Positions 4,312 to 55,089 of a stretch of DNA of 64,000 nt are shown one piece after another. Location: contig JAISIR010000010.1 in assembly GCA_031261985.1 (NCBI GenBank), forward strand, positions 26,049 through 90,048. Direction: 5' to 3'. The position numbers and the translations under genes were made by a program. The first letter of the stretch is position 1. Each line of letters opens with the position of its first letter. The stretch comes from Clostridiales bacterium. GTDB taxonomy: Bacteria > Bacillota > Clostridia > Monoglobales > WRBX01. Below the pieces are notes generated by a model, which searched no databases, was not told where the DNA came from, and worked only from the letters and a program-made list of their open reading frames with translations.

Positions 4312-7300
4312 TTACTTAATATATAGCATGTTATAAATCATTTGAGCTGCCTCGGCACGTTTAGTCTTTTTAGTTGGGTTCATGTTACCCCAATCATCGC
4401 CATTTATTATGCCTGCTTTTTGCATAGCTTTAACGTAGCTAATAGACCAATCGGCTATTTGAGCTTGGTCGTTGAAAGTTTTCACCTCAAGCTCGGGCAA
4501 TTTTAACCCTTTGTGTAACGAATATTTAGTTAGTACTATCGCCATTTCTTGCCGTGTAATGTTTCTGCCAGGTCTAAACTCACTATCTTCGTAACCTATT
4601 ACAATGTCAAGCGAGCTTGCCCAAGCCACTGCCTGAGCATACCACGCCTCTGGCTCGTAATCTGGGAAGCGGTTATCTGCATAATTAATTAAAGATGAGG
4701 TAACCGTGCTTTGTTCGCCAGATAATTCAAACAGCATCTGAACAATTTCGGCGCGAGTGATAAACTTTTCGGGTTCAAACCTAAATGTACCGTCGCCCAT
4801 GTCGTAACCTTTTATAATGCCGCGCTTAATTAAGTCTATAACCACTTCTTCAGACCAATGGTCTTTTAAATCGACATAATCCTCTATTTTGGGGCTGGGG
4901 CTAGGATCGGGGATAGGGCTTGGCTCTGGGCTAGGACTAGGACTTGGTTTAACCCCGCCGCCTCCTCCTCCGCCACCACTGCCAGGCTTAGTTTTTCCTG
5001 GATGGTCATCTTTATCTAGAGGGTCGGTTCCTTTTTGAATCTCTACATTATCATCATATCCGTCTCCGTCGGTATCTTTTTTGGTTGGGTCGGTATGATG
5101 ATTATTTATCTCATCACCGTCAGTCAAACCGTCGCCGTCGGTGTCATCAGTAGGGTCGGGTTTGCTATCTGGGTCTAATGGGTCATAGCCATTTTCTACT
5201 TCCCAGCCGTCATTATAACCGTCGCCGTCAGTATCTTTATTAGTTGGGTCTGTATGATGATTATTCATCTCATCACCGTCAGTTAAACCATCGCCGTCGG
5301 TGTCATCAGTAGGGTCGGGCTTGCTATCTGGGTCTAATGGGTCGTAGCCATTTTCTACTTCCCAGCCGTCATTATAACCGTCGCCGTCGGTGTCTTTGTT
5401 GGTTGGGTCGGTATGATGATTATTTATCTCGTCACCATCAGTCAAACCGTCACCGTCAGTGTCGTTATTAGTTGGGTCTGTATGATGATTATTTATCTCG
5501 TCACCGTCAGTCACACCATCTCCATCAGTATCACCAGAAGGGTCGGGCTTACTATCGGGGTCTAGTGGGTCGTAACCGTTTTCTACTTCCCAACCGTCAC
5601 CATAACCGTCACCATCGGTATCTGTTTTGCTTGGGTCGGTATGATGGATATTTATCTCATCACCGTCAGTTAAGCCGTCGCCGTCGCTATCATTAGTAGG
5701 GTCGGGCTTGCTATCGGGGTCTAGTGGGTCGTAGCCATTATCTACTTCCCAACCGTCGCCATAGGTGTCTCCGTCGGTGTCATTATTAGTTGGGTCGGTA
5801 TGATGGATATTTATCTCATCACCGTCAGTCAATCCGTCGCCGTCGGTGTCGCCAGCAGGGTCGGGCTTACTATTTGGGTCCAATGGGTCGTAACCATTTT
5901 CCACTTCCCAACCGTCAAGATATACATCGTCATCGGTATCGGTATCTAGCGGGTCGCTGCCAATTGTATTTACTTCCTCGCCATCGGTCAAACCGTCGTC
6001 GTCGGTATCGGGGTCATATAAATCGGTGTTGAGCAATTTTTCATGACCGTCTATTAATCCATCGTCATCGATATCAGCGTCTAATGGGTCGGGGTCTTCT
6101 CCATCTAGTAAAAGGTCGTCGTCTGTGTCGGGGTCTAGAGGGTCGGTACCTAGTTCAAGTTCTTCGGGGTCAGTCAAGCCGTCATCATCGGTATCTGGTT
6201 TTAATGGGTCGGTACCCAACTCAAGTTCTTCGGGGTCAGTCAAGCCGTCATCGTCGGCATCAATCTTTAATGGGTCTGGGTCTACACCGTCCAAAAGAGT
6301 ATCTTTATCAGTGTCTGGGTCAAGCGGGTCGGTCGTTAGTTCTAGTTCCCTACCGTCGTTTAGTCCATCATCATCGGTATCACTATCTTTGGGGTTCGTA
6401 CCATGTATAATTTCGTCGCCGTCAGATATACCATCATCGTCATAATCGGGGTCAAGCGGGTCTAACCCTAGCTCTAGCTCGCGTTTATCGTCCAAACCGT
6501 CGGAATCGGTATCAGGGTTTTTAGGGTCGGTGCCTGTCCTATTTACTTCGTCACCATCAGTTAAACCGTCATCATCGGTGTCACTATCTTTTGGATTAGT
6601 CTCGTGAGTTTTAACTTCTGCGCCATCAGTTAATCCGTCGTCGTCGCTATCAGAATCTAGCGGGTCGGTATCGTATGTATGGATTTCCTCGCCATCTGTT
6701 AAACCGTCGCCATCGGTATCGGGAACAAAGACCTCGGTTCCTCTATCGAACTCATCGCTATCTTTTAATCCGTCTCCGTCGGTGTCTACATTAGGGTCCA
6801 AGGCTATTGGGTTGCTTCCAGCGTCATCGGGGTCGAAACCGTGTTCTTCCTCCCATTTGTTGGGGTATCTGTCACCGTCGCTATCTGCCGAGCCATCTTT
6901 TACCGTCACTTTAATGCTTAAATTTAGTGTCTTGTAATTTTTTGTATCGTTAGGAGTGAATTTTGCATTGAAATATTTTATTCCGATAGTACCAATCTCG
7001 GCATTGGGATTATCCCACGTGAAGCTGCCACTTGAACTTGTAGGAAGTGCAAGTGTGGATAGTTTTTCGCCTTGTGAATAATATGTTGTAAAATTGGGCT
7101 GAGTAATATTGGGGTTGGCTTGCTCTACAATAACAGTTACAGGTATATTAGTTACAGTTTCGTAATTTACAGGGTCTTGCGGGATAAATTTAACATAGTA
7201 AGTTTTTGTACCTACTTCGCCAATTACAATCTCGGGGTTTTGCCATACATATTGCCCATTGTTCGGCTGGACAATTACTAAATCACCCACTTTAGCATTT

Positions 7301-8346
7301 GGAGAGTATGCGCGACGCAAGGTAGCAATTAAATCGCCCGCGCCCATAGCTTCAGTTTGTAACTCGGGCAGAACGATTACGTCAGAGAGTGCTAGCGTGC
7401 TAAGCATTTGCGGCTGAGCTTTACCGATTTCAAATTCGTATGAAATATCTGGTGCGGCTAAAAATGTGCCATTGCCTGCTTGCGATGCTGTTATGGTGAC
7501 CTTGCCCGCTTTTTTAGCAGTTACTACGCCGTTGGCATTAACCGTTGCAACTGTAGAATTACTTGTTCTATATGTAGGAGTAAGCCCAGATGAAGCCGTT
7601 GCTCTATTTGTATAGCTTACAATTGGCGAGTATGTTGCGGTTTTTTTACTTTGCCCATATTCAAAGCTTAAAGCTTGAGGAAACGCATCAACAGGAATTG
7701 GGTCGTTTATAGAGCCTGGTCCTGAAGGTGGGACATCTAATCCGCCTGATGTAAAGGTAGCAAAATCGGCTGCTTCTAAGAAGCCTAAGCTTTTAACTAA
7801 GGCATTATTACTCATGTTGGTAGCCATTTGCGTTGCAGAGGTAGGTAGTATGTTGCCTTCAGAATCGGTAGTATATGATGCTGTGTGTGTGTAACAAATT
7901 TTTAAAACATTTTCATCGCTTATTTTTGTACCATTTACATATATACCAAAATTTGTTGTAATTTCTACGCAATAATGTCTATGATTTGTATTGCTGCACT
8001 TGCTTAAAACCGTTGTGATAGATATGGTGTTCTCTTCCCAGGATAAGGTTTTAGTAAGAGTGTGGTCGGGGTGGGCAACACCTGTCATCTTGTATAATTT
8101 GTTATGACAATCATAAGTACCACTTATATCTTCCTTATCCCTTAATGTTTGCTGTGTACTTTCTACTGGTCTAATTTCTTTAGTTTCTTCATTTACCAAG
8201 TAGATATCGCCAAAATGATCGGAACGAGGATTGTTAATTTTATAGTAACGCCACCAAAAAGGCGCAGCAAAAAACGTAGTTGGCATTAAGCTGACAACCA
8301 TGACTACAGTCAAAAATAGCGATATAATTTTTTTATAGTTCTTCAT
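4312..8346 (-). CDS. SLH-anchored surface protein with Big_2-like domain and a long array of thrombospondin type-3 (Ca-binding) repeats
   Basis: 1344 aa. It has a signal-like N-terminus, a Big_2-like segment (TVATVNANGVVTAKKAGKVTITA), and about 600 aa of DxDxDGxxDxxE repeats. These are followed by a G8 + PSPSP linker and three C-terminal SLH domains. Confidence 0.9.
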   Translation of the reverse strand: MKNYKKIISLFLTVVMVVSLMPTTFFAAPFWWRYYKINNPRSDHFGDIYLVNEETKEIRPVESTQQTLRDKEDISGTYDCHNKLYKMTGVAHPDHTLTKTLSWEENTISITTVLSKCSNTNHRHYCVEITTNFGIYVNGTKISDENVLKICYTHTASYTTDSEGNILPTSATQMATNMSNNALVKSLGFLEAADFATFTSGGLDVPPSGPGSINDPIPVDAFPQALSFEYGQSKKTATYSPIVSYTNRATASSGLTPTYRTSNSTVATVNANGVVTAKKAGKVTITASQAGNGTFLAAPDISYEFEIGKAQPQMLSTLALSDVIVLPELQTEAMGAGDLIATLRRAYSPNAKVGDLVIVQPNNGQYVWQNPEIVIGEVGTKTYYVKFIPQDPVNYETVTNIPVTVIVEQANPNITQPNFTTYYSQGEKLSTLALPTSSSGSFTWDNPNAEIGTIGIKYFNAKFTPNDTKNYKTLNLSIKVTVKDGSADSDGDRYPNKWEEEHGFDPDDAGSNPIALDPNVDTDGDGLKDSDEFDRGTEVFVPDTDGDGLTDGEEIHTYDTDPLDSDSDDDGLTDGAEVKTHETNPKDSDTDDDGLTDGDEVNRTGTDPKNPDTDSDGLDDKRELELGLDPLDPDYDDDGISDGDEIIHGTNPKDSDTDDDGLNDGRELELTTDPLDPDTDKDTLLDGVDPDPLKIDADDDGLTDPEELELGTDPLKPDTDDDGLTDPEELELGTDPLDPDTDDDLLLDGEDPDPLDADIDDDGLIDGHEKLLNTDLYDPDTDDDGLTDGEEVNTIGSDPLDTDTDDDVYLDGWEVENGYDPLDPNSKPDPAGDTDGDGLTDGDEINIHHTDPTNNDTDGDTYGDGWEVDNGYDPLDPDSKPDPTNDSDGDGLTDGDEINIHHTDPSKTDTDGDGYGDGWEVENGYDPLDPDSKPDPSGDTDGDGVTDGDEINNHHTDPTNNDTDGDGLTDGDEINNHHTDPTNKDTDGDGYNDGWEVENGYDPLDPDSKPDPTDDTDGDGLTDGDEMNNHHTDPTNKDTDGDGYNDGWEVENGYDPLDPDSKPDPTDDTDGDGLTDGDEINNHHTDPTKKDTDGDGYDDNVEIQKGTDPLDKDDHPGKTKPGSGGGGGGGGVKPSPSPSPEPSPIPDPSPSPKIEDYVDLKDHWSEEVVIDLIKRGIIKGYDMGDGTFRFEPEKFITRAEIVQMLFELSGEQSTVTSSLINYADNRFPDYEPEAWYAQAVAWASSLDIVIGYEDSEFRPGRNITRQEMAIVLTKYSLHKGLKLPELEVKTFNDQAQIADWSISYVKAMQKAGIINGDDWGNMNPTKKTKRAEAAQMIYNMLYIK
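4995..6890 (-). repeat. in-frame tandem repeat region encoding TSP3-type repeats, including about five near-identical 159-bp units (about 5045-5950) and 66-bp units near 6125-6260
   Basis: Direct reading: the block ...ccattttctacttcccagccgtc... recurs at about 5195, 5354, 5580, 5740 and 5897. Confidence 0.85.
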
Positions 8347-46029: not shown

Positions 46030-46219
46030 ATTGATATTGAGCAAAAAGTAATTGTCGGCATTTGCCTAAATTGCATACAATATAATGGGTAAATTTTGGT
46101 ATGAAAGATTGTTATTTTAGTTGCTATTTATAAAAGATTGATTATGTAAAGTTGTTTTGGTATTTTGCATCTTTGGTTTTAAAGTGCATACTCTTCAATT
46201 CAACTTTACATTTCTTTCT

Positions 46220-46265
46220 GCATTTGCTGCCTTAGCTCAGTCGGTAGAGCACTTCCTTGGTAAGG
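46220..46265 (+). pseudogene. orphan 5'-half copy of tRNA-Thr(GGU), with 6 nt of upstream flank
   Basis: 46 nt (gcatttGCTGCCTTAGCTCAGTCGGTAGAGCACTTCCTTGGTAAGG) are identical to 46365-46410. The match ends in the 3' side of the anticodon stem. Confidence 0.85.
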
Positions 46266-46370
46266 CTTCAAATTCTCCTCGAATTTGACGACAGTTTTGC
46301 AAGTTTTGACGACAGTTTGTGTAAATCGTCCTTGCATTGATACACTAAAAACCGCATATTTCCAGCATTT

Positions 46371-46446
<76 letters not shown>

Positions 46447-46634: not shown

Positions 46635-48092
46635 CTAACTCTCTTTCGACTCATTTAATATTTTTTCTATATCGGATTTTACTCCACCAGATAAATCTCT
46701 TGAATCACCAATTTTGTGACATTTAAAACCATTAAGGTCAAAAGGAGGTTTATCGTTTTCTTCTTTAGGTTGGTAATAAAACACCATTTTCCCTAAACCC
46801 ACATTTTTTAATGCGTAGCCGACCTCAACCATAACATTATGACGAGCTCCAGTTAAATCTGCAACAAAAATGTCGCAATCTGATATTTCTCTATACATAA
46901 CACTTCTAATATCAAATGTTCCGCCTTCTTCCGTTCCCATATCTATGGGGACTAGGTTTAATTCGTTCGCTATTTCTTTCATTTGGTTTATTCTGTGATT
47001 TGCTTGTGATAATTCTGGTTCGCTTGTAGGATACCAACGGGCAATGAACATTTTCTTAGGGGCGTTTTCATAAATCTTATCATATATACTAATGATATCA
47101 TCAGTCTTTAGATTCGTTGCCTCCGAAATATGATTTTTTGCTATCCATTTAATAAAGTGTGAATATTTTTCCCAATTCACAATTTTATAATAAACCAATG
47201 ACTCAATTATGTAAACATTATTACTCTTAGCTACTATTCCGTTTTCACGAATTACATTTTCGATATCAACCAGTGTTTCTTTTATAGTTTGAACGGCGTT
47301 CTCTGGGGCAAGTTTCTCTATATCTAATAAGCGTCTAAATAAATTTAGGAAGAAAGAATACCTTTTTTCATAAATGAATTCTTTAATTTTAGGGAATACA
47401 TCAAAATTCACCTTTCTATCCCCTATTAGAATATCACGAGTGAATTTATAGCACAATCCAAAAGAAGGGTCTTCAAGAAGATTATCATCGGAAAAGGTGT
47501 TAAACCCTTCTATAATTGTTTTAATATTAAGTTCTAATTCAAGTGGAATTTGTTTAGAATTAATATTATGGAATATAGCTCTTGAATGTCTTTCAAGTTC
47601 AGTATTTGTAGGAAACAATATAATACAAAACGGTATGAGCATATCTGGGTTTGCATAATCGGCTGCACTTAATCTATGATTTCCATCTATTCGTAAGATT
47701 TTTACTTTATCTTCTTCGAAATCAAGTTGTGCAATTTTTAACGGTTTGTTATCGCCGACTAATTTGTTATTTTGTTTATTAAAATTTACCGTTATGTCTC
47801 CAATATTAGTTGCCCTTGACCCTTTTTCGCGAGAATTAACAGCTTCCAAAAGCATTTCGAAAGGTTGAATATTTTCGTCTAAGTTAAAAGACATTGATAA
47901 AACCACTTCGGGGAAATACTTATAATCACCTTTTGTTAAAAAGTTGATCATTTCATTCGCATGTTCTCCCAATAAATCACGTTGAATATCGGGATTCACT
48001 TCAGATATTTCTGCCAATTCTTTAATGGTTGCTAAACCACGAAGGCAAAGATAATTATCCATAATTGTTGATAAAATGCCATTCATTTTCAT
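46635..48092 (-). CDS. fusion protein: N-terminal DGQHR/ParB-like (DndB-family-like) domain + C-terminal nucleoside 2-deoxyribosyltransferase-like (NDT/DNPH1/TIR-like) domain
   Basis: 485 aa. The N-terminal motifs are NPDIQRDL...YFPEVVLSM...LRIDGNHRLSA. The C-terminal motif is CDIFVADLTGARHNVMVEVGYAL..GLGKMVF. RBS AGGAGG; the start lies 15 nt after the hsdR stop. Family assignments are from memory. Confidence 0.6.
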   Translation of the reverse strand: MKMNGILSTIMDNYLCLRGLATIKELAEISEVNPDIQRDLLGEHANEMINFLTKGDYKYFPEVVLSMSFNLDENIQPFEMLLEAVNSREKGSRATNIGDITVNFNKQNNKLVGDNKPLKIAQLDFEEDKVKILRIDGNHRLSAADYANPDMLIPFCIILFPTNTELERHSRAIFHNINSKQIPLELELNIKTIIEGFNTFSDDNLLEDPSFGLCYKFTRDILIGDRKVNFDVFPKIKEFIYEKRYSFFLNLFRRLLDIEKLAPENAVQTIKETLVDIENVIRENGIVAKSNNVYIIESLVYYKIVNWEKYSHFIKWIAKNHISEATNLKTDDIISIYDKIYENAPKKMFIARWYPTSEPELSQANHRINQMKEIANELNLVPIDMGTEEGGTFDIRSVMYREISDCDIFVADLTGARHNVMVEVGYALKNVGLGKMVFYYQPKEENDKPPFDLNGFKCHKIGDSRDLSGGVKSDIEKILNESKES

Positions 48093-48107
48093 CTGTTATT
48101 CCTCCTT

Positions 48108-51100
48108 CTACACCAGCCCGAAGAACTTCTCAAAGAATATCGTTAGTTTTTCAATAACTGTTGTTTTCTTAACAGTTCTGTTATTCTCGCCAAATAGCGA
48201 TGTAGGCGGAAGGATTTTATCAATGCCTGTGCCTGTTGTTTTAAGCTCGCCTGCGCGGAATGAATTATCAATAAACTTGTGTGTTTCTTCTTTTTTTAGA
48301 TTTTCGAATTCAATAATTGCTCCTAAATCCTGTTCCTTTTGCTCTTTTACAAATTCCACCCATTCTGCCTCAACTTTTGTATTAATATTCATACGCTCAA
48401 TGAAATTTGTAATAAGCTCTTTTTTGCTACGAAGCTCTAAGCTTGAGCCGATAGCCTTGTCGATCGTTTCTAAAATTTCTTTATCCGTGCAATGACTATC
48501 GTGATATTTAGTAACAAGCATTAGAATATAGTCAATGTTTATATTAACCTGCTTGATAAGCTCCATTTCAAAGACAATATCGTCGTTTATTATCTCTTTT
48601 TTGGCATCAATATTCTTTCTGTATTTCTGATAAAGGTCGATGTATTTACCGTGATAATCTTGGAATTCACGTTCAGTTAAAATTTCATTGTCCTTGTAAT
48701 CATCGAACGACACGAGAATATTTCTAAGACGCAAAATAGCAGAATATAGCTCGATAAATTCTTTTTCACTTTCCTCGCCTATAATCTCGCCAAAATTTTT
48801 AAGGTCTTCTATAAGCTCCGAATATTTATCATAATAATGCTTAAAAGGTTTTAAAAGCACAATTCCTGCCGCATCTTTATCGCCAAATAGACTAATCGCC
48901 TCATTGGTTTCTTGTTCTAAATTACGAAAGCATACGATATTACCAAAGCGTTTGACGCTATTTAATATTCTATTGGTTCGTGAAAACGCTTGAAGTAGTT
49001 TGTGATATTTTAAGTTTTTATCAACCCAAATGGTGTTTAGCGTCGTTGCATCAAATCCCGTCAAAAACATATCTACAACAATCAAAAGGTCAATCTGACG
49101 GTTTTTCACTCGCATAGACAAATCTTTATAATAGTTTTGGAATTTATCGCTTGAAGTGTCGTAATTTGTATTGAACATTGCGTTATAATCAGCTATTGCA
49201 CCTTCTAGAAAATCACGGCTAACTTTGTCTAAACCTTCGGTCGTAAATTCTTCATCTGGCTCTTCTTCGTTGGCTGAGTAGCTAAATATTGTCGCAATTT
49301 TTAGGTTATGCTCGTGGTTTTTGAACTCGTTATAATACCTTTTCGCCATATCAATCGAACTTACAGCAAAGATAGAGTTAAATCCGTTGACGGTCTTTTC
49401 CTCTTTAATCTCATCAACTTCTTTTTTCTTATCTTCTGCCAGTTTCTCAATATTTGTTATAACTCTGTGTTGGAAATGCGAAAGATTTTGGTTGCGATAA
49501 GTTTTATCGTTGAAATTTTTTATAATGTACTCCACGGTATTGCTTATAAGCTGGTTATCGCTTAATACCGCTGCGGTGTCTATCGCACTCACTTTTTTAT
49601 CAATAATTCCGTCTTTTATTCTAAATCGCTCTATGTAATCAACTTTAAAGGGCAGAACATTGCCGTCGTTTATTGCGTTTACGATTGTGTAGGTGTGCAG
49701 CTTATCTCCGAAGGCTTGCTCGGTTGTTCTAAGCATTGGGTTGCCTGATGTGCTGCTATTGGGTGCAAAAATAGGAGTGCCTGTAAAACCGAATATGTGA
49801 TAATTCTTAAAATTCTTTGTTATTCTAAGGTGCATATCGCCAAATTGCGAGCGATGGCATTCATCGAATATCAAAACAATATGCTTCTTAAAAACCTCAT
49901 GTCCTTTGTTTCGTCCAATAAAAACATCAAGCTTTTGAATGGTTGTAACTATAATTCTGGTATCATCTGATAATTGTTTTTCAAGAACTTTTGTAGAAGT
50001 GTTGCCATTGGCTGCTCCTTTGCAAAAACGGTCGTATTCTTTCATTGTTTGGTAATCAAGGTCTTTTCTATCAACGACAAATAGCACCTTATCAATATAA
50101 TCAAGCCCTGTTGCAAGTTGAGCCGTCTTGAATGATGTCAGAGTTTTGCCCGAGCCTGTTGTATGCCAAATATAACCGCCAGCTTCGATGCCGCCCATTT
50201 TTTTATAATTGTTAGAACACTCAATGCGGTTTATAATCTTCTCAGTTGCGGCGATTTGATACGGACGCATAACCAAAAGTAGCTGCTCGCTTGTGAAAAC
50301 GCAATACTTCGTTAAAATATTTAGTATTGTGTGTTTAGCGAAAAAAGTTTTGGTAAAATCGACTAAATCGGTTATTAGTTTATTCTCGCCATCTGCCCAA
50401 TAGCTTGTGAATTCAAACGAATTGCTTGTTTTCTTGGAGCGTGACGCTCCACCCGTTTTGACTTCATAAACATGAGAAAATCTTGTTGTGTTGCTATAAT
50501 ATTTCGTGTGAGTTCCGTTGGATATAACGAAAATCTGAGCATACTCATACAGACCACAACCTGCCCAAAAGCTATCGCGCTGGTATCTATCAATTTGATT
50601 AAATGCTTCTTGAAGCGGCACGCCACGCTTTTTCAACTCAATATGCACAAGCGGCAAACCGTTGACGAGTATTGTTACATCATAACGATTATCATAAGTT
50701 CCAGAGTTTTCGTATTGGTTGATAATCTGCAAGTGGTTGTTATGTATGTTTTTCTTGTCTATTATAGAAATGTTTTTTGTTATTCCATTATCAAGGCGAA
50801 AAGCATATCTATAATCTTCTTGGACTTTGCGTGTTTTCTCAACAATTCCCTCATTTTTATTGATAAGGTATTCATTGCAAAAACGCTGCCACTCTCTATC
50901 ATAGAAAGTATAATCGTTTAACCGTTCAATTTGCTTCCGCAAGTTTGCAAGCAAATCAGCCTCGGAGGAAAGAGCAACAAAATCATAGCCTTGTATTCTA
51001 AGACGCTCAATAAAATCTTTTTCCAGCTCCGCCTCGCTTTGATAAGCCCCCGATTGCTTTTCAGTCGGGACATATTTTGCAACGACGGTGGACTCGTTTT

Positions 51101-51128
51101 GCTCGGCTATCATTTTGTAATCTTTCAC
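48108..51128 (-). CDS. hsdR: type I restriction enzyme R subunit, EcoR124I-like (type IC)
   Basis: 1006 aa. NRYDVTILVNGLPLVHIELKKRGV (nuclease/HSDR_N region), GSGKT, FDECHRSQ (DEAH box) and FSRTNR are present. The N-terminal region closely resembles my recollection of EcoR124I HsdR. The GTG start overlaps the hsdS stop; the exact start is uncertain. Confidence 0.92.
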   Translation of the reverse strand: MKDYKMIAEQNESTVVAKYVPTEKQSGAYQSEAELEKDFIERLRIQGYDFVALSSEADLLANLRKQIERLNDYTFYDREWQRFCNEYLINKNEGIVEKTRKVQEDYRYAFRLDNGITKNISIIDKKNIHNNHLQIINQYENSGTYDNRYDVTILVNGLPLVHIELKKRGVPLQEAFNQIDRYQRDSFWAGCGLYEYAQIFVISNGTHTKYYSNTTRFSHVYEVKTGGASRSKKTSNSFEFTSYWADGENKLITDLVDFTKTFFAKHTILNILTKYCVFTSEQLLLVMRPYQIAATEKIINRIECSNNYKKMGGIEAGGYIWHTTGSGKTLTSFKTAQLATGLDYIDKVLFVVDRKDLDYQTMKEYDRFCKGAANGNTSTKVLEKQLSDDTRIIVTTIQKLDVFIGRNKGHEVFKKHIVLIFDECHRSQFGDMHLRITKNFKNYHIFGFTGTPIFAPNSSTSGNPMLRTTEQAFGDKLHTYTIVNAINDGNVLPFKVDYIERFRIKDGIIDKKVSAIDTAAVLSDNQLISNTVEYIIKNFNDKTYRNQNLSHFQHRVITNIEKLAEDKKKEVDEIKEEKTVNGFNSIFAVSSIDMAKRYYNEFKNHEHNLKIATIFSYSANEEEPDEEFTTEGLDKVSRDFLEGAIADYNAMFNTNYDTSSDKFQNYYKDLSMRVKNRQIDLLIVVDMFLTGFDATTLNTIWVDKNLKYHKLLQAFSRTNRILNSVKRFGNIVCFRNLEQETNEAISLFGDKDAAGIVLLKPFKHYYDKYSELIEDLKNFGEIIGEESEKEFIELYSAILRLRNILVSFDDYKDNEILTEREFQDYHGKYIDLYQKYRKNIDAKKEIINDDIVFEMELIKQVNINIDYILMLVTKYHDSHCTDKEILETIDKAIGSSLELRSKKELITNFIERMNINTKVEAEWVEFVKEQKEQDLGAIIEFENLKKEETHKFIDNSFRAGELKTTGTGIDKILPPTSLFGENNRTVKKTTVIEKLTIFFEKFFGLV

Positions 51129-51726
51129 GCTGTTTTCAGCTCCTTAAAATCTAATAATTTGTTCCGATAGTATTCATATTGTTTTCGTCTTGCCTCAATT
51201 TCAGCAGGAAGCCCTTGGGTTATGTCAGTTGTCAGTGCGTCGAATTTATCGAGAATTTCGACAATACGCTCTTGGGTTGCAAGAGGAGGGATGGGTATTT
51301 GAAGTTCTCTAATAAACGACAAATTGGCTATAGCTAGTTTTCCGCCGCTTGTTAGTGCAATAAATTGAGGGAATAGAATTTGACAAGCATAAAACAAATA
51401 ATACTTATCCAATACTTTTTCGTTTTTCGGATATAATGCGGCGACATTTTGATTTGTTGCTGCTTCAAAGTTTAAAAAAGCTATTTTCCCAATTGTTGCT
51501 CCTACCATTGCTATTAGTGTTGTACCGATAGGAAGTATTTTCGCCGATGAATTACTTAGACCGCTTTCAGTAATATATTCAGTGACTTCATCTACATACT
51601 TTTGATTCTTGCAGACGGTTGAACCAAGCCATTTCACAGTGCCATTCTCCCAATATTCTGATACACCTCGTTTAGGAGTACCTCCAGCGCTTACGCAACA
51701 TACTTCCCCGAGGCTACTCCATAATA

Positions 51727-51734
51727 CCCCCCCC
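51727..51734 (-). repeat. G8 homopolymer (C8 on the plus strand) at the hsdS frameshift point
   Basis: Read directly: ataataCCCCCCCCgttttc. Confidence 0.95.
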
Positions 51735-51795
51735 GTTTTCCAGTTTTTGGAAATTCAAGAGAGAATTACGATAGTATTCATATTGTTTTTTCCGC

Positions 51796-51831
51796 GCTGT
51801 AAGCTCTGCTGTAAGCTCTGCTGTAAGCTCT
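51796..51831 (-). repeat. 3 perfect tandem copies of a 12-bp unit in the hsdS central conserved region (encodes TAEL repeats)
   Basis: gctgtaagctct x3 on the plus strand; it translates to [14 protein letters not shown]. Confidence 0.95.
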
Positions 51832-52374
51832 GTAAAATTGTCAAGTATCTTGACAATTTCTCTCTGAACGGCAAGGGGAGGCAGGGGGATTTTGATGTTT
51901 TCCCATTTTCCTTTACTTAACCCAAATCTAGTTAGACCTGTTGCGTTCATAAGAATTTGTTTTTGAAGCACATTGCTTTCAAACAAATAAGATAAGTAGA
52001 ATGGTGATAATTGTTCCTTGTTTTTAATTCTAACTCTCATTATATGATAACTATAAACTGCATTATCTATTGTTTGAGTAGCAACGGCAGAATGCCCAAT
52101 ATCGTCGATAGTTTCGGAAGTTGGTGTAATAAATACATCACCCTCTTCAATTGAGCAATTCTCAATTTTATTATCGCTCGCTGAAACCTCCATCGCAAGC
52201 GTTTCTGGCGTAATGTACATATTGCGATATACATCCATATAATTGAGAAGTTTAACCATTTTTTGGTCGGGAACTATCTTTTTGTCAACACCTGTATTTG
52301 CAATTTCGCAAACATCCACCAACTTAACATACTCCACCCCATTCGGGCAAAGATTCTGTATTAGCTCCGTTAGT

Positions 52375-53403
52375 TTATTCATCGTTCTCACCACCGTTCT
52401 TGCTTTTCAGTTGTTTAATAACCTTATCAAAGTCAGAAGTGATTTTCTGTGTCCTATTATATTCGGCATATTCCAAAAAAGCTTTTTCATCGGCTTGCTT
52501 TCTACTTATACGCCCATTGTCTTTGAGTATTTTATATTTGCGGAACTCTAAAAACTCGTTTATGCTAGTAGCGAACTCATCCATAGTGAAGGTATTTTCT
52601 CGTTCTATCAAATCTTCAATATAATCAAAATACCCAGAAACTGCACGTTCTAACTGACGGATTTGTTTTTCTTCCAAGTAGTTTTTGGCGATTTTTACAT
52701 CTTGTTTTAATATTCTGCCCTTCGGAGAATTTTCCCAAGTCTTAAGCCCCATATGCTCTTTATTTCTATCTGCATTCGCATATACAATTTCAGCACCCGT
52801 TTGCCCTGTTATAGCAAAATGGAATTTATTTTGAACGGTTGCATAAAACTTATCTGTAACCTCTGCATTTCTGTCATAGTCAATCGAACATTCTGCGAAT
52901 ATATCGGTTATTTGTTGCCATATACGCCGTTCACTTGCACGGATAGAGCGGACACGCTCTAAAAGCTCACGGAAGTAGTCTTTGCCGAAAAGCGTCTTGC
53001 CTTGTTTTAGCCTCTCGTCATCCATAGCAAAGCCTTTGGTCATATATTCTTTCAAAATGCCAGTTGCCCAAATTCTAAAATTTGTCGCACGCCGTGAATT
53101 GACACGATAGCCAACGGAAATAATAGCATCGAGATTGTAAAATTTAGTTCCGTGCGTCTGAGTCTTACCTACGATTGCACCGTGTTGAGTGGTTGTTTCC
53201 AAAATGGAAATAACCACTTTTTCTTGCAATTCGCCTTCCTCGAAAATGTTTTTTAAATGCTTGCTTATAGCAGGCGTTTGCACATCGAAAAGTTCAGCCA
53301 TTGCTCCTTGTGTGAGCCAAACGGTTTCATCTTTTACAACGGCGTTGATTGATACATCGCCCTCAGCTGAATTGTAAATTATAAATTGAAAATTATTTTC
53401 CAT
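52375..53403 (-). CDS. rhuM: RhuM-family protein embedded in the R-M operon
   Basis: The N-terminus [53 protein letters not shown] is typical of RhuM-family proteins (from memory). It overlaps the hsdS start. Confidence 0.8.
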
Positions 53404-53448: not shown

Positions 53449-55008
53449 TCACTCTATTTCCGCAATAATCTTGTCAATTTCAGCCCTCAAAACTTCCTCG
53501 CGAGCAACGATTTCGGCTATCTCTTTGTTAAGTTCTACAATATCTATAACTTCCCGAGTGTCCTTTTTTTCAACATAGCTTGACACGCTTAGCTTATAAT
53601 CTTTTTTGGCAATATCTTCGTTTTTAACGAGTTTTGCTATATATTCTACATCTTCACGGTTAGAAAAATAATTCACGATGTCGTTTATATCTTCTGGTCT
53701 AAGTTGATTAGAATTAGCAACTTTTTTACGCTTGTTGCTTGCGTCAATAAATAGCGTGCTGTTGTCTTTTTTATTCTTTTTCATAACCATAATACAAGTT
53801 TCTATACCTGTGCCGTAGAAAAGATTGTCAGGAAGCTGAATAACGCAATCAACATAGTTATTATCAATTAGATACTTACGGATTTTCTGCTCAGCTCCGC
53901 CACGGTAGAATATACCTGGGAAGCAAACAATTGCAGCAGTTCCGCTCGTTGCAAGCCAAGAAAGAGAGTGCATAATAAACGCCATATCAGCTTTTGATTT
54001 TGGTGCTAGTATTCCAGCAGGTGAAAAACGCTTGTCGTTTATCAAAATAGGGTTGCCGTCGCCCGCCCATTTGATAGAGTATGGAGGATTAGAAACAATC
54101 GCCTCGAAAGGCTCGTCATCCCAATGCTTAGGGTCGGTTAGAGTATCGCCGTGAGCAATGCTAAATTTATCATAATCAATATCGTGCAAGAACATATTAA
54201 TGCGACATAGGTTATAAGTTGTTATGTTTATCTCTTGCCCATAAAACCCTTGATGCACATTGTCTTTGCCTAAAATTTTAGCGAATTTAAGGAGTAGCGA
54301 ACCCGAACCACAAGCAGGGTCGTAGACTTTATTAACTTCCGTCTTGCCAACTAATGTAAGTTTCGTTAAAAGCTCGCTAACCTCTTGCGGAGTAAAGAAC
54401 TCGCCGCCACTTTTGCCAGCGTTAGAAGCATACATACTCATAAGATACTCATACGCATCGCCGAAAGCGTCAATTGTATTATCTTGAAAATCTCTTAGCC
54501 TTATGTTACCGATGCCGTCTAAAAGTTTAACAAGTCTTGCATTTCTTTGACTAACCGTTCCGCCAAGTTTGTTGGAGTTAGTGTCGACATCGTCAAACAA
54601 GCCTTTTAAGTTTAATTCGCTTTCGTTGCCTTGTGCTGAGCTTTCAATATTCTTAAAAATTTTTTCAAGAGTTTCGTTAAGGTTATCGTCGTTTTTAGCA
54701 ACTTTTAAGATGTTCTCAAAAAGCTCGCTAGGAAGGATGAAATACCCTTTTGTTTTAACTATTTCTTTTCGTGCAAATTTTGCTTGAGTATCAGGCATTT
54801 TAGCGTAATCAAAAGAGGTATTGCCAGTGGCGTGTTCGCCTTTATTTATGTATGAGGTTAGGTTTTCAGAGATATATCTATAAAATAATATACCAAGCAC
54901 ATATTGCTTAAAATCCCAACCGTCAACGCTGCCACGCAAATCGTCAGCTATCGCCCAAATCGCACGATGAAGTTCTTGCCTTTCTTGCACTTTCTTATTA
55001 TCTATCAT
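53449..55008 (-). CDS. hsdM: type I restriction-modification system methyltransferase subunit (N6-adenine)
   Basis: The HsdM N-terminal domain ([36 protein letters not shown]), SAM motif [12 protein letters not shown] and catalytic NPPY (SNPPYS) are present. The ATG at 55008 sits 6 nt after AAGGAGG. Confidence 0.95.
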
Positions 55009-55060
55009 TGCCATCCTCCTTGAAAATCCAGCAATATTCCTCATTGTTTCAACTATGAAC

Positions 55061-55089
55061 ATTGTATCACAAGATTATTATTTAGTCAA
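55061..55089 (-). promoter_or_regulatory. sigma-A promoter for the hsdM-rhuM-hsdS-hsdR-(DGQHR fusion) operon
   Basis: On the minus strand: TTGACT, a 17-nt spacer, then TGaTACAAT (extended -10). Confidence 0.6.

Follow-up and report, generated by a model that had tools for sequence, protein, structure and literature searches.

What is the role of an unnamed gene that stands last in a type IC restriction-modification (R-M) operon? The question is raised by a 64,000-nt stretch of the Clostridiales contig JAISIR010000010.1 (hereafter the window, to which coordinates refer), in which an open reading frame (ORF) at 46635-48092 encodes the protein referred to here as gene X or X. An earlier note, made from the sequence alone, had read it as a DGQHR/ParB-like head fused to a tail of the nucleoside 2-deoxyribosyltransferase (NDT)/DNPH1/TIR type, and had proposed a back-up role of the PrrC kind. 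The analysis reported here supports the two-domain reading and places X in a family attached to R-M operons that depend on a specificity (S) subunit. The function favoured, tentatively and at a little short of an even chance, is that of an accessory restriction-coupled back-up (second-line) effector which would cleave the glycosidic bond of NAD+ or a nucleotide.

Family and domain architecture of the gene X protein

Gene X is a real gene, because more than 1000 homologous protein clusters, mostly full length, were matched in a search of 5.8 billion protein clusters. The best 120 of the more than 1000 were nearly all full length (~480-500 aa) and 43-56% identical to the window protein; all were named 'hypothetical' and none carried a precomputed Pfam domain. 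The window protein has an identical counterpart in a Clostridiales metagenome-assembled genome. A profile search of 1.84 billion representatives at 50% identity returned 1588 sequences at an expect value (E) ≤1e-3, 474 at ≤1e-10 and 242 at ≤1e-30, most of them matching over the whole length. Most members are from Clostridia, with others in Gastranaerophilales, Bacteroidaceae and Proteobacteria; the family has neither a name nor a Pfam or PADLOC model. No phage homologues were detected by tblastn against 50,697 phage records and PHROGs gave a weak match only, to a family of unknown function; a phage origin of gene X was rejected on these two results.

Conservation was evaluated in an alignment (A1) of 45 homologues from both of the operon types described below. 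The invariant columns of the head were Q37 R38; F60 P61 E62; R134 D136 G137 N138 H139 R140; F174, N178 and Q181. Those of the tail were R352 W353 Y354 P355; D407, A411 D412, G415, R417, N419 V420 M421, E423, G425; and P450 F451 D452. The 16 residues listed as invariant in the 45 sequences were Q37, R38, P61, E62, R134, G137, N138, H139, R140, F174, N178, A411, D412, N419, E423 and G425. As judged from this conservation, head and tail are both shown to be under purifying selection.

The NCBIfam model TIGR03187 (DGQHR) matched residues 35-183 of the window protein with an E of 6.6e-7 and 29.3 bits, below the curated cut-off of 58.85, and matched 45 of 45 homologues (best 1e-12), all of them sub-threshold. 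Five of the 45 were also matched by TIGR04172 (dnd-associated DGQHR) and one by Pfam DndB. Three elements define the DGQHR domain (PMC4619093): a QR pair, the pentapeptide DGQHR and the motif FxxxN. X carries each of them, as Q37-R38, D136-G-N-H-R140 and F174-H-N-I-N178, and they are invariant in the 45 homologues and are kept in variants at 22-30% identity; the pentapeptide of X is DGNHR, with an invariant N in place of Q. Foldseek against the viral models of BFVD returned mostly DndB-like 'DNA-sulfur modification-associated protein', DUF262/GmrSD N-terminal, ParB-like nuclease, ParB/Sulfiredoxin and AIPR models, with E of 9e-6 to 1e-2 and low template-modelling (TM) scores of 0.2-0.37. On the basis of motifs and models, the head is accepted as a divergent DndB/GmrS-type ParB-fold domain.

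The ParB-like core is interrupted by a beta-rich insert (residues 69-131) with a mean pairwise identity of 25% versus 55-59% in the flanking core, falling to 11% between divergent variants, which makes it a candidate specificity or sensor surface. The head is followed by an all-helical middle domain (residues 186-345) that, from the models, may be a linker or regulatory. A HEPN domain at this position, as in DndB, was considered and rejected, there being no Rx4-6H motif and R219 being the sole invariant basic residue.

In the tail, Pfam Nuc_deoxyrib_tr (PF05014) matched with an E of 1.2e-4 (22.6 bits; gathering threshold 28.8) and also matched 32 of the 45 homologues, in each case sub-threshold, while PF10137 (CAP12-PCTIR_TIR) gave 0.009 (16.4 bits versus a threshold of 24.7) and matched nine. 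The PADLOC TIR effector model PDLC00733 matched residues 333-464 at 5e-8. Foldseek of the full-length AlphaFold2 (AF2) model, which had a predicted local distance difference score (pLDDT) of 83 and a predicted TM score (pTM) of 0.56, retrieved TIR-STING, several NDTs, DNPH1, BlsM, BcmB and the MyD88 TIR domain over ~150 columns with probability 1.0 and E of 4e-4 to 7e-3, the top match being TIR-STING 9lmq (3.6e-4). The NDT/DNPH1 fold was recovered through 2a0k, 8qc0, DNPH1, BlsM and BcmB with TM scores (target) of 0.5-0.69. Compared with the sequences of PDB chains, the profile matched trypanosomatid NDTs only, and weakly, the single sequence giving an E of 0.006. The family profile pairs ADLTGAR-HN----VMVEVGYA with ADLSPFRGHEPDCGTAFEVGCA of the T. 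brucei NDT and places E423 on the Glu of FEVGCA, in line with the position of the NDT nucleophile. Because of the Pfam, PADLOC and Foldseek matches and the alignment with the T. brucei NDT, the tail is judged by sequence and model to belong to the NDT/DNPH1/TIR Rossmannoid assemblage.

These results uphold what the earlier note had claimed for the protein. The peptides that it quoted are present (IQRDL 36-40, YFPEVVLSM 59-67, LRIDGNHRLSA 133-143, CDIFVADLTG 406-415, NVMVEVGYAL 419-428 and GLGKMVF 432-438), the DGQHR/ParB-like head and the NDT/DNPH1/TIR-like tail were both recovered, and the Glu of EVGYA proposed there as catalytic is the E423 that aligns with the catalytic Glu of NDT.

Linkage of gene X to R-M operons and its accessory status

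Loci encoding homologues were gathered by exact-protein look-ups and by scanning GTDB with a single genome for each species (46 loci), and neighbouring genes were annotated by tblastn and Pfam. Nearly all loci fell into two contexts, and this linkage is the strongest of the results. In the type IC context, comprising 14 distinct loci counting the window, the gene order was hsdM-hsdS-hsdR-X, the gap between hsdR and X was 12-19 nt and the X proteins were 48-56% identical to that of the window. In the BcgI/BsaXI-like context, comprising about 36 loci, a 600-750-aa HSDR_N_2+N6_Mtase fusion (the RM fusion) was followed by a Methylase_S gene with two target recognition domains (TRDs) and then by X, and the gap before X, where the neighbour was measurable, was mostly -4 to +17 nt and in a few loci 34-70 nt. 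Judged by its domains, the layout of RM fusion and Methylase_S is of the type IIB-like 'RM + S' kind. The remote 50%-cluster representatives P0150, P0184 and P0253 were also in this context. Five short contigs (L024, L030, L048, L050 and L051) held too little upstream sequence for the context to be read. No dndACDE or dpdA/queC-type neighbours were found among the ~50 loci with identified neighbours, in which the partners were an N6-methyltransferase, an S subunit and HsdR. Linkage of X to S-subunit-dependent R-M operons is obligate-looking. The association with R-M put forward in the earlier note stands, and 13 further independent type IC loci have an hsdR-X junction like that of the window, at 12-19 nt; not visible from the single sequence was that type IC is the minority host and that most relatives follow a BcgI/BsaXI-like fusion and S gene.

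The type IC-linked X sequences look, from their similarity, like one subgroup inside a more diverse type IIB-like-linked family. A clean split of X into two clades by host R-M type was rejected, since clustering by the unweighted pair group method with arithmetic mean kept the type IC-linked sequences unseparated. A separate observation concerns a plasmid of Leisingera thetidis (NZ_CP109788.1; L061, 7927-10170), on which a 747-aa ORF annotated 'N-6 DNA methylase' consists of half an N6_Mtase domain joined to X residues ~109-478 (24% identity, E 5e-26). This ORF was rejected as a functional Rosetta-stone fusion because both partners are truncated, and it is regarded as what a deletion left of a methylase-(S)-X operon.

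A set of 80 metagenomic loci was picked by RM-fusion similarity alone and then searched with the X profile; 37 of the loci had at least 3.5 kb of downstream sequence. Gene X was present in 17 of the 37, namely in 16 of 18 loci with at least 75% RM-fusion identity to the reference and in one of 19 at 50-75%. Among the distant loci, downstream genes were annotated for L125 and L140, and in both of them unrelated genes come after RM and S. L091 has a close RM fusion but lacks X, and its slot after S is occupied by an AbiJ_NTD3+Abi_C abortive-infection (Abi) protein (6753-7850). Abi-type genes also adjoin X in various BcgI-like loci and include HEPN_LA2681+TPR (overlapping the X stop), Ymh-type HEPN, Mrr_cat, T5orf172/GIY-YIG and DUF4238. 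The possibility that X is a core subunit of the BcgI-like R-M system was rejected, as 18 of the 19 more distant R-M relatives are without X and AbiJ can replace it. These results show that the R-M system can do without X and that X and Abi genes are interchangeable. Variable 'embedded' defence cargo is known in R-M, BREX and Hma systems (10.1101/2024.01.29.577857; PMC3710099; PMC3632139), and the rotating Abi genes around X match that pattern by analogy.

The X variants diverge far more than the R-M genes that precede them. RM-fusion genes that are 98-99% identical (L026 and L065 versus L067; also L081, L087 and L090) precede X variants that are only 25% identical, and over the whole clade RM-fusion identity ranges from 74 to 99% and X identity from 22 to 100%. 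Variants at 22-30% identity retain QR, PE, R(I/V)DGNHR, FH(N/K)IN, IADL(T/S) and N(V/I)xxExG(Y/F). The ParB core around DGNHR-FHNIN is the most conserved region of X and the insert 69-131 the least. The pattern points to the swapping of X variants as cassettes at the 3' end of the operon, much like the shuffling of S-subunit TRDs. The combination of conserved catalytic-type residues, a hypervariable surface element and cassette exchange is expected of a sensor-effector in an arms race and not of a housekeeping or regulatory subunit.

The type IC locus of the window

The coordinates of gene X, its domains and its neighbours are collected in Table 1. The window R-M system is assigned to type IC on an HsdR with EcoR124_C together with HsdM and HsdS. 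Gene X is the final gene of the hsdM-rhuM-hsdS-hsdR operon and beyond it lie a tRNA-Thr gene and convergent ribosomal-protein genes. No terminator-like sites were found on the minus strand from hsdM through the end of gene X. The claims of the earlier note that a 485-aa ORF begins 15 nt after the hsdR stop behind its own ribosome-binding site, and that it is the last gene of a type IC operon with no terminator between the genes, were therefore borne out, the site being located within the spacer and the upstream genes being confirmed by Pfam. The composition hsdM-rhuM-hsdS-hsdR was likewise confirmed by Pfam, with the amendment that hsdS is not intact.

Table 1. Features of gene X and the surrounding R-M locus (window positions, except the last row, which gives positions in other loci).
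Feature	Position	Strand	Details and evidence
Gene X	46635..48092	minus	485 aa, ATG start; stop codon 46635-46637
Gene X start codon	48090-48092	minus	
DGQHR (DndB/GmrS-type, ParB/Srx-fold) domain, residues 1-185	47538..48092	minus	TIGR03187, invariant motifs, BFVD Foldseek
Head motifs	QR 47979-47984; DGNHR 47673-47687; FHNIN 47559-47573	minus	
Beta-rich insert in ParB-like core, residues 69-131	47700..47888	minus	Pairwise identity, secondary structure
All-helical middle domain, residues 186-345	47058..47537	minus	AF2 models, invariant columns
NDT/DNPH1/TIR-like Rossmannoid domain, residues 346-485	46638..47057	minus	Profiles, Foldseek, conservation
Candidate catalytic Glu423	46824-46826	minus	Within ADLTGxRxNVMVEVGYA
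hsdR-X spacer, 15 nt	48093..48107	minus	Ribosome-binding site AAGGAGGA at 48100-48107
hsdR, type IC	48108..51128	minus	TAG stop 48108-48110; Pfam HSDR_N, SWI2_SNF2, T1R_D3-like, EcoR124_C
hsdS, two ORFs (51714-52394 and 51125-51637)	51125..52394	minus	Pfam: two Methylase_S halves
rhuM-family gene, embedded between hsdM and hsdS	52375..53403	minus	Pfam
hsdM (HsdM_N + N6_Mtase)	53449..55062	minus	Pfam
Candidate operon promoter, sigma-70-like, best match of the region	55061..55089	minus	Consensus match only
Abi-type slots	L015 11446-12984; L017 9237-9983; L026 11451-12434; L019 9216-9995 and 11449-12108		

The hsdS reading frame is broken at a minus-strand run of eight G (G8, 51727-51734), and removal of one G or addition of two would give a single HsdS of 422/423 aa. 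The frameshift could mark a phase-variable specificity gene or could be a homopolymer assembly error; the upstream half (TRD1 and the central region) could, from its sequence, form a symmetric half-S dimer by itself. A perfect 12-bp tandem repeat of 3.1 copies (51796-51832) encodes TAEL three times within the HsdS central conserved region. In EcoR124I and EcoR124II, the copy number of such a repeat sets the spacer length of the recognition site.

A promoter-like TTGACT-17-TACAAT with a TG element (10/12) is located directly upstream of hsdM. Promoter-like matches in the region are as numerous as expected from shuffled sequence, and given this frequency the assignment of the site as operon promoter is only suggestive. 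The longest hsdM ORF begins ~15-19 codons before the start of the homologue alignment and overlaps the -10 element of this site; the true start is probably the methionine of MAMIDNKK, ~50 nt downstream of 55062. The rhuM-family gene, a second and independent embedded cargo of the same operon, is also found between hsdM and hsdS in L040 (4811-5833) and is absent from most other type IC-X loci.

The tRNA-Thr(GGT) gene (46360-46446) lies 188 nt past the gene X stop, and a 51-nt copy of its leader and 5' half, 96% identical, is located at 46215-46265, 145 bp upstream of the tRNA. An integrative element bounded by att repeats was considered and rejected, as the tRNA and its partial copy do not bracket the R-M island but share one side of it, and neither a flanking repeat nor an integrase was observed. 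Gene X is the stretch of lowest G+C content in the region (0.31 versus ~0.40).

A proposed back-up effector role and alternative functions

The proposed function draws on three precedents. The DUF262/DGQQR heads of GmrSD, BrxU and SspE bind and hydrolyse nucleoside triphosphates (NTPs) and gate a C-terminal effector (PMC4619093; PMC13251355; 10.1101/2024.01.29.577857). The NDT-like and TIR-like domains of defence systems deplete NAD+ or adenine nucleotides by way of a catalytic Glu, as in the retron Ec86 effector (10.1101/2023.08.16.553469) and DUF4062 (10.64898/2026.05.01.722283), and NDT has been predicted as an Abi toxin domain (PMC3710099). PrrC and RonA are toxic effectors that are restrained by type I R-M components and freed by phage anti-restriction factors (10.1101/2023.04.06.535777). 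In the favoured reading, X is co-transcribed with the genes of an S-subunit-dependent R-M system, and at many loci its translation is probably coupled to theirs as well. The head, helical domain and hypervariable insert would form a regulatory or sensing module in which the head would act as an NTP- and/or DNA-binding switch, as in GmrSD, BrxU and SspE. The tail would be the executioner, with Glu423 hydrolysing the N-glycosidic bond of NAD+ or a (deoxy)nucleotide, and replication would collapse in cells in which restriction had failed or been inhibited, a logic resembling that of PrrC and Ronin. NTP binding, substrate, trigger and abortive outcome are thus all predictions for X. The context data strengthen the PrrC-like role suggested in the earlier note, which continues to depend on analogy.

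Comparison with PrrC/RloC and Ronin (RonA) indicates where that analogy applies. Like X, these are accessory genes tied genetically to hsd genes, and they give back-up immunity when restriction is blocked; PrrC joins an NTPase regulatory head to a toxic catalytic tail, an arrangement that can be likened to that of X. However, they have no sequence or fold relation to X, PrrC having an ABC-ATPase head and an RNase tail and RonA being a 61-aa membrane peptide. No ATPase or PrrC-type match was found for X in any of the libraries, genomic coupling to hsd being the only feature in common with PrrC/RloC. Furthermore, X is located after hsdR or after S and not between hsd genes, and its trigger and latency are predicted only. 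The tail resembles the NDT-like effector of retron Ec86 (Retron-Eco1), TIR-STING/Cap12 of CBASS, PycTIR of Pycsar and DUF4062 in its Rossmannoid fold, in the placement of its candidate catalytic Glu on the helix that follows the central strand, and in the role of anti-phage executioner predicted for it; its nearest characterised relatives are the PADLOC TIR effector model (5e-8) and TIR-STING, the top Foldseek match. In contrast to X, the sensors of these systems are multicopy single-stranded DNA with reverse transcriptase, or cyclic nucleotides through STING or SAVED, and none has a ParB/DGQHR fusion or coupling to an R-M operon.

Several results weigh against the back-up effector reading. 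All profile matches for head and tail are below curated family thresholds; X reaches none for DGQHR, NDT or TIR-like families, yet by motif and model it carries the defining motifs and folds of those families. The N-terminal AF2 model (residues 1-342, pLDDT 80) gave no significant Foldseek match in the PDB, and therefore structural support for the ParB fold rests on the BFVD matches. With a pTM of 0.56, the inter-domain arrangement is uncertain in the model. The tail motif ADLxGxRxNVxxExGYA is, in sequence, intermediate between classical NDTs and the CAP12/PCTIR-type TIR NADases and does not indicate a substrate. The frameshift in the window hsdS means that the partner R-M system may be off. 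Divergent X variants behind near-identical R-M genes argue against the co-adapted R-M complex of a strict PrrC-like 'guard' model; therefore any contact with R-M would be through conserved surfaces, or there may be no contact. Finally, the remote homologue P0224 (L059) is the sole readable locus without recognisable R-M neighbours.

In the main rival reading, X would be a type IV-like modification-sensing enzyme, an analogue of GmrSD, BrxU and SspE with HNH replaced by a DNA N-glycosidase: an NTP-dependent head would recognise modified or foreign DNA, and where phage DNA evades the methylation-sensitive R-M partner, the tail would excise its bases and leave abasic sites. GmrSD, BrxU, SspE and TgvAB share their general plan with X as read here: a ParB/Srx-fold domain with QR, DGQ(Q/H)R and FxxxN motifs comes first, a helical linker follows, and a catalytic effector forms the C-terminus. 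They are also, like X, carried on or within other defence loci, namely BREX, Ssp and type I R-M. The BFVD matches of X include GmrSD N-terminal/DUF262 and DndB-like models, and the GmrSD-like TgvAB has been found experimentally inside a type I R-M locus of V. cholerae, which it complements (PMC11411939). According to a proposal by Anantharaman et al. (PMC3710099), the glycosidic bonds of DNA are the target of NDT domains found in Abi contexts. The rapid diversification seen in X is typical, too, of type IV enzymes that phages counter with inhibitors. Nevertheless, X differs from the GmrSD-like proteins in its DGNHR motif and NDT/TIR-like tail; no DUF1524/HNH domain was found in it with Pfam, NCBIfam or PADLOC, and it scores on TIGR03187 with no Pfam DUF262/GmrSD_N match, which places it outside GmrSD. 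The characterised NDT, DNPH1, BlsM and TIR relatives use free nucleosides, nucleotides or NAD+ and not polymeric DNA, and binding of DNA by the tail is an assumption to which no established feature corresponds. GmrSD-like systems are commonly located outside R-M loci, whereas X is almost never seen without R-M. The type IV-like role is therefore considered unlikely, although not negligibly so.

Two further functions follow from the kinship of the head with DndB and DpdB, which belong to the same domain family by TIGR03187 (one X member also matching Pfam DndB) and likewise occur in DNA-modification operons. They differ from X in that X is without dnd or dpd neighbours, its partners are N6-methyladenine (m6A) methyltransferases and its C-terminus is NDT/TIR-like where that of DndB is HEPN-type (PMC3632139); X is accordingly not a member of the Dnd or Dpd systems. 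There is little chance that X is a DpdA/DpdB-like enzyme of base exchange (transglycosylation) or hypermodification, in which the DGQHR head would drive a base swap that adds a second self-mark beside m6A. DGQHR proteins do accompany DNA-modification systems, as seen for DndB and in the TIGR04172 matches, and NDT chemistry is itself base exchange through a covalent intermediate on the Glu with which E423 aligns. However, at no locus was X accompanied by conserved genes that would make an unusual base, the neighbouring slots hold Abi-type toxins, X is dispensable for the R-M clade, and the swapping of 25%-identical cassettes is unlike a modification enzyme that must match its cognate restriction partner. 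The chance is very small that X is a regulator or housekeeping accessory of R-M, a DndB-like controller of restriction alleviation or establishment with a ligand-binding, non-catalytic tail. DndB is a DNA-binding negative regulator of its own operon (PMC4507180), and X invariably either ends its operon or is tightly coupled to the R-M genes; yet the catalytic-type Glu, Asp and Asn of the tail are invariant even at 22-30% identity. Relatives of the R-M clade should all possess such a regulator, but X is missing from 18 of the 19 distant ones, and its slot is interchangeable with AbiJ. Base-exchange and purely regulatory roles thus suit the context data poorly.

The themes joined in X are familiar. 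ParB-like heads fused to toxic domains within R-M loci are known (PMC3632139, PMC3710099) and NDT/TIR effectors are already known in defence. The X-type fusion, the size of its family and its fidelity to two R-M classes were not found in PADLOC 2023, Pfam, NCBIfam, PHROGs (weak matches only) or the literature searched, consistent with the statement of the earlier note that this is not a described defence system. A more far-reaching reading, considered rather less likely than not, is that X represents a new class of restriction-coupled immunity, in which a diversifying ParB/DGQHR NTP switch would monitor the methylase-S complex, a DNA mark or phage anti-restriction factors and would unleash an N-glycosidase on NAD+, nucleotides or DNA bases. 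If so, both the type I and the type IIB-like R-M systems of gut and environmental Bacillota would have in X a plug-in module, an arm for 'anti-anti-restriction' or base excision.

R-M is the commonest bacterial defence and is routinely disarmed by phages, and few back-up effectors tied to it are understood (PrrC, Ronin, TgvAB). The X family comprises hundreds of 50%-identity clusters, is attached in the sample to two mechanistically different types of S-subunit-dependent R-M, and combines two kinds of domain that have each served in immunity elsewhere, ParB-fold NTP switches and N-glycosidases of the NDT/TIR type. If X is active, it would bring a new effector chemistry to restriction-linked defence and would provide a tractable single-gene model of the control of toxic domains by a ParB-fold sensor.

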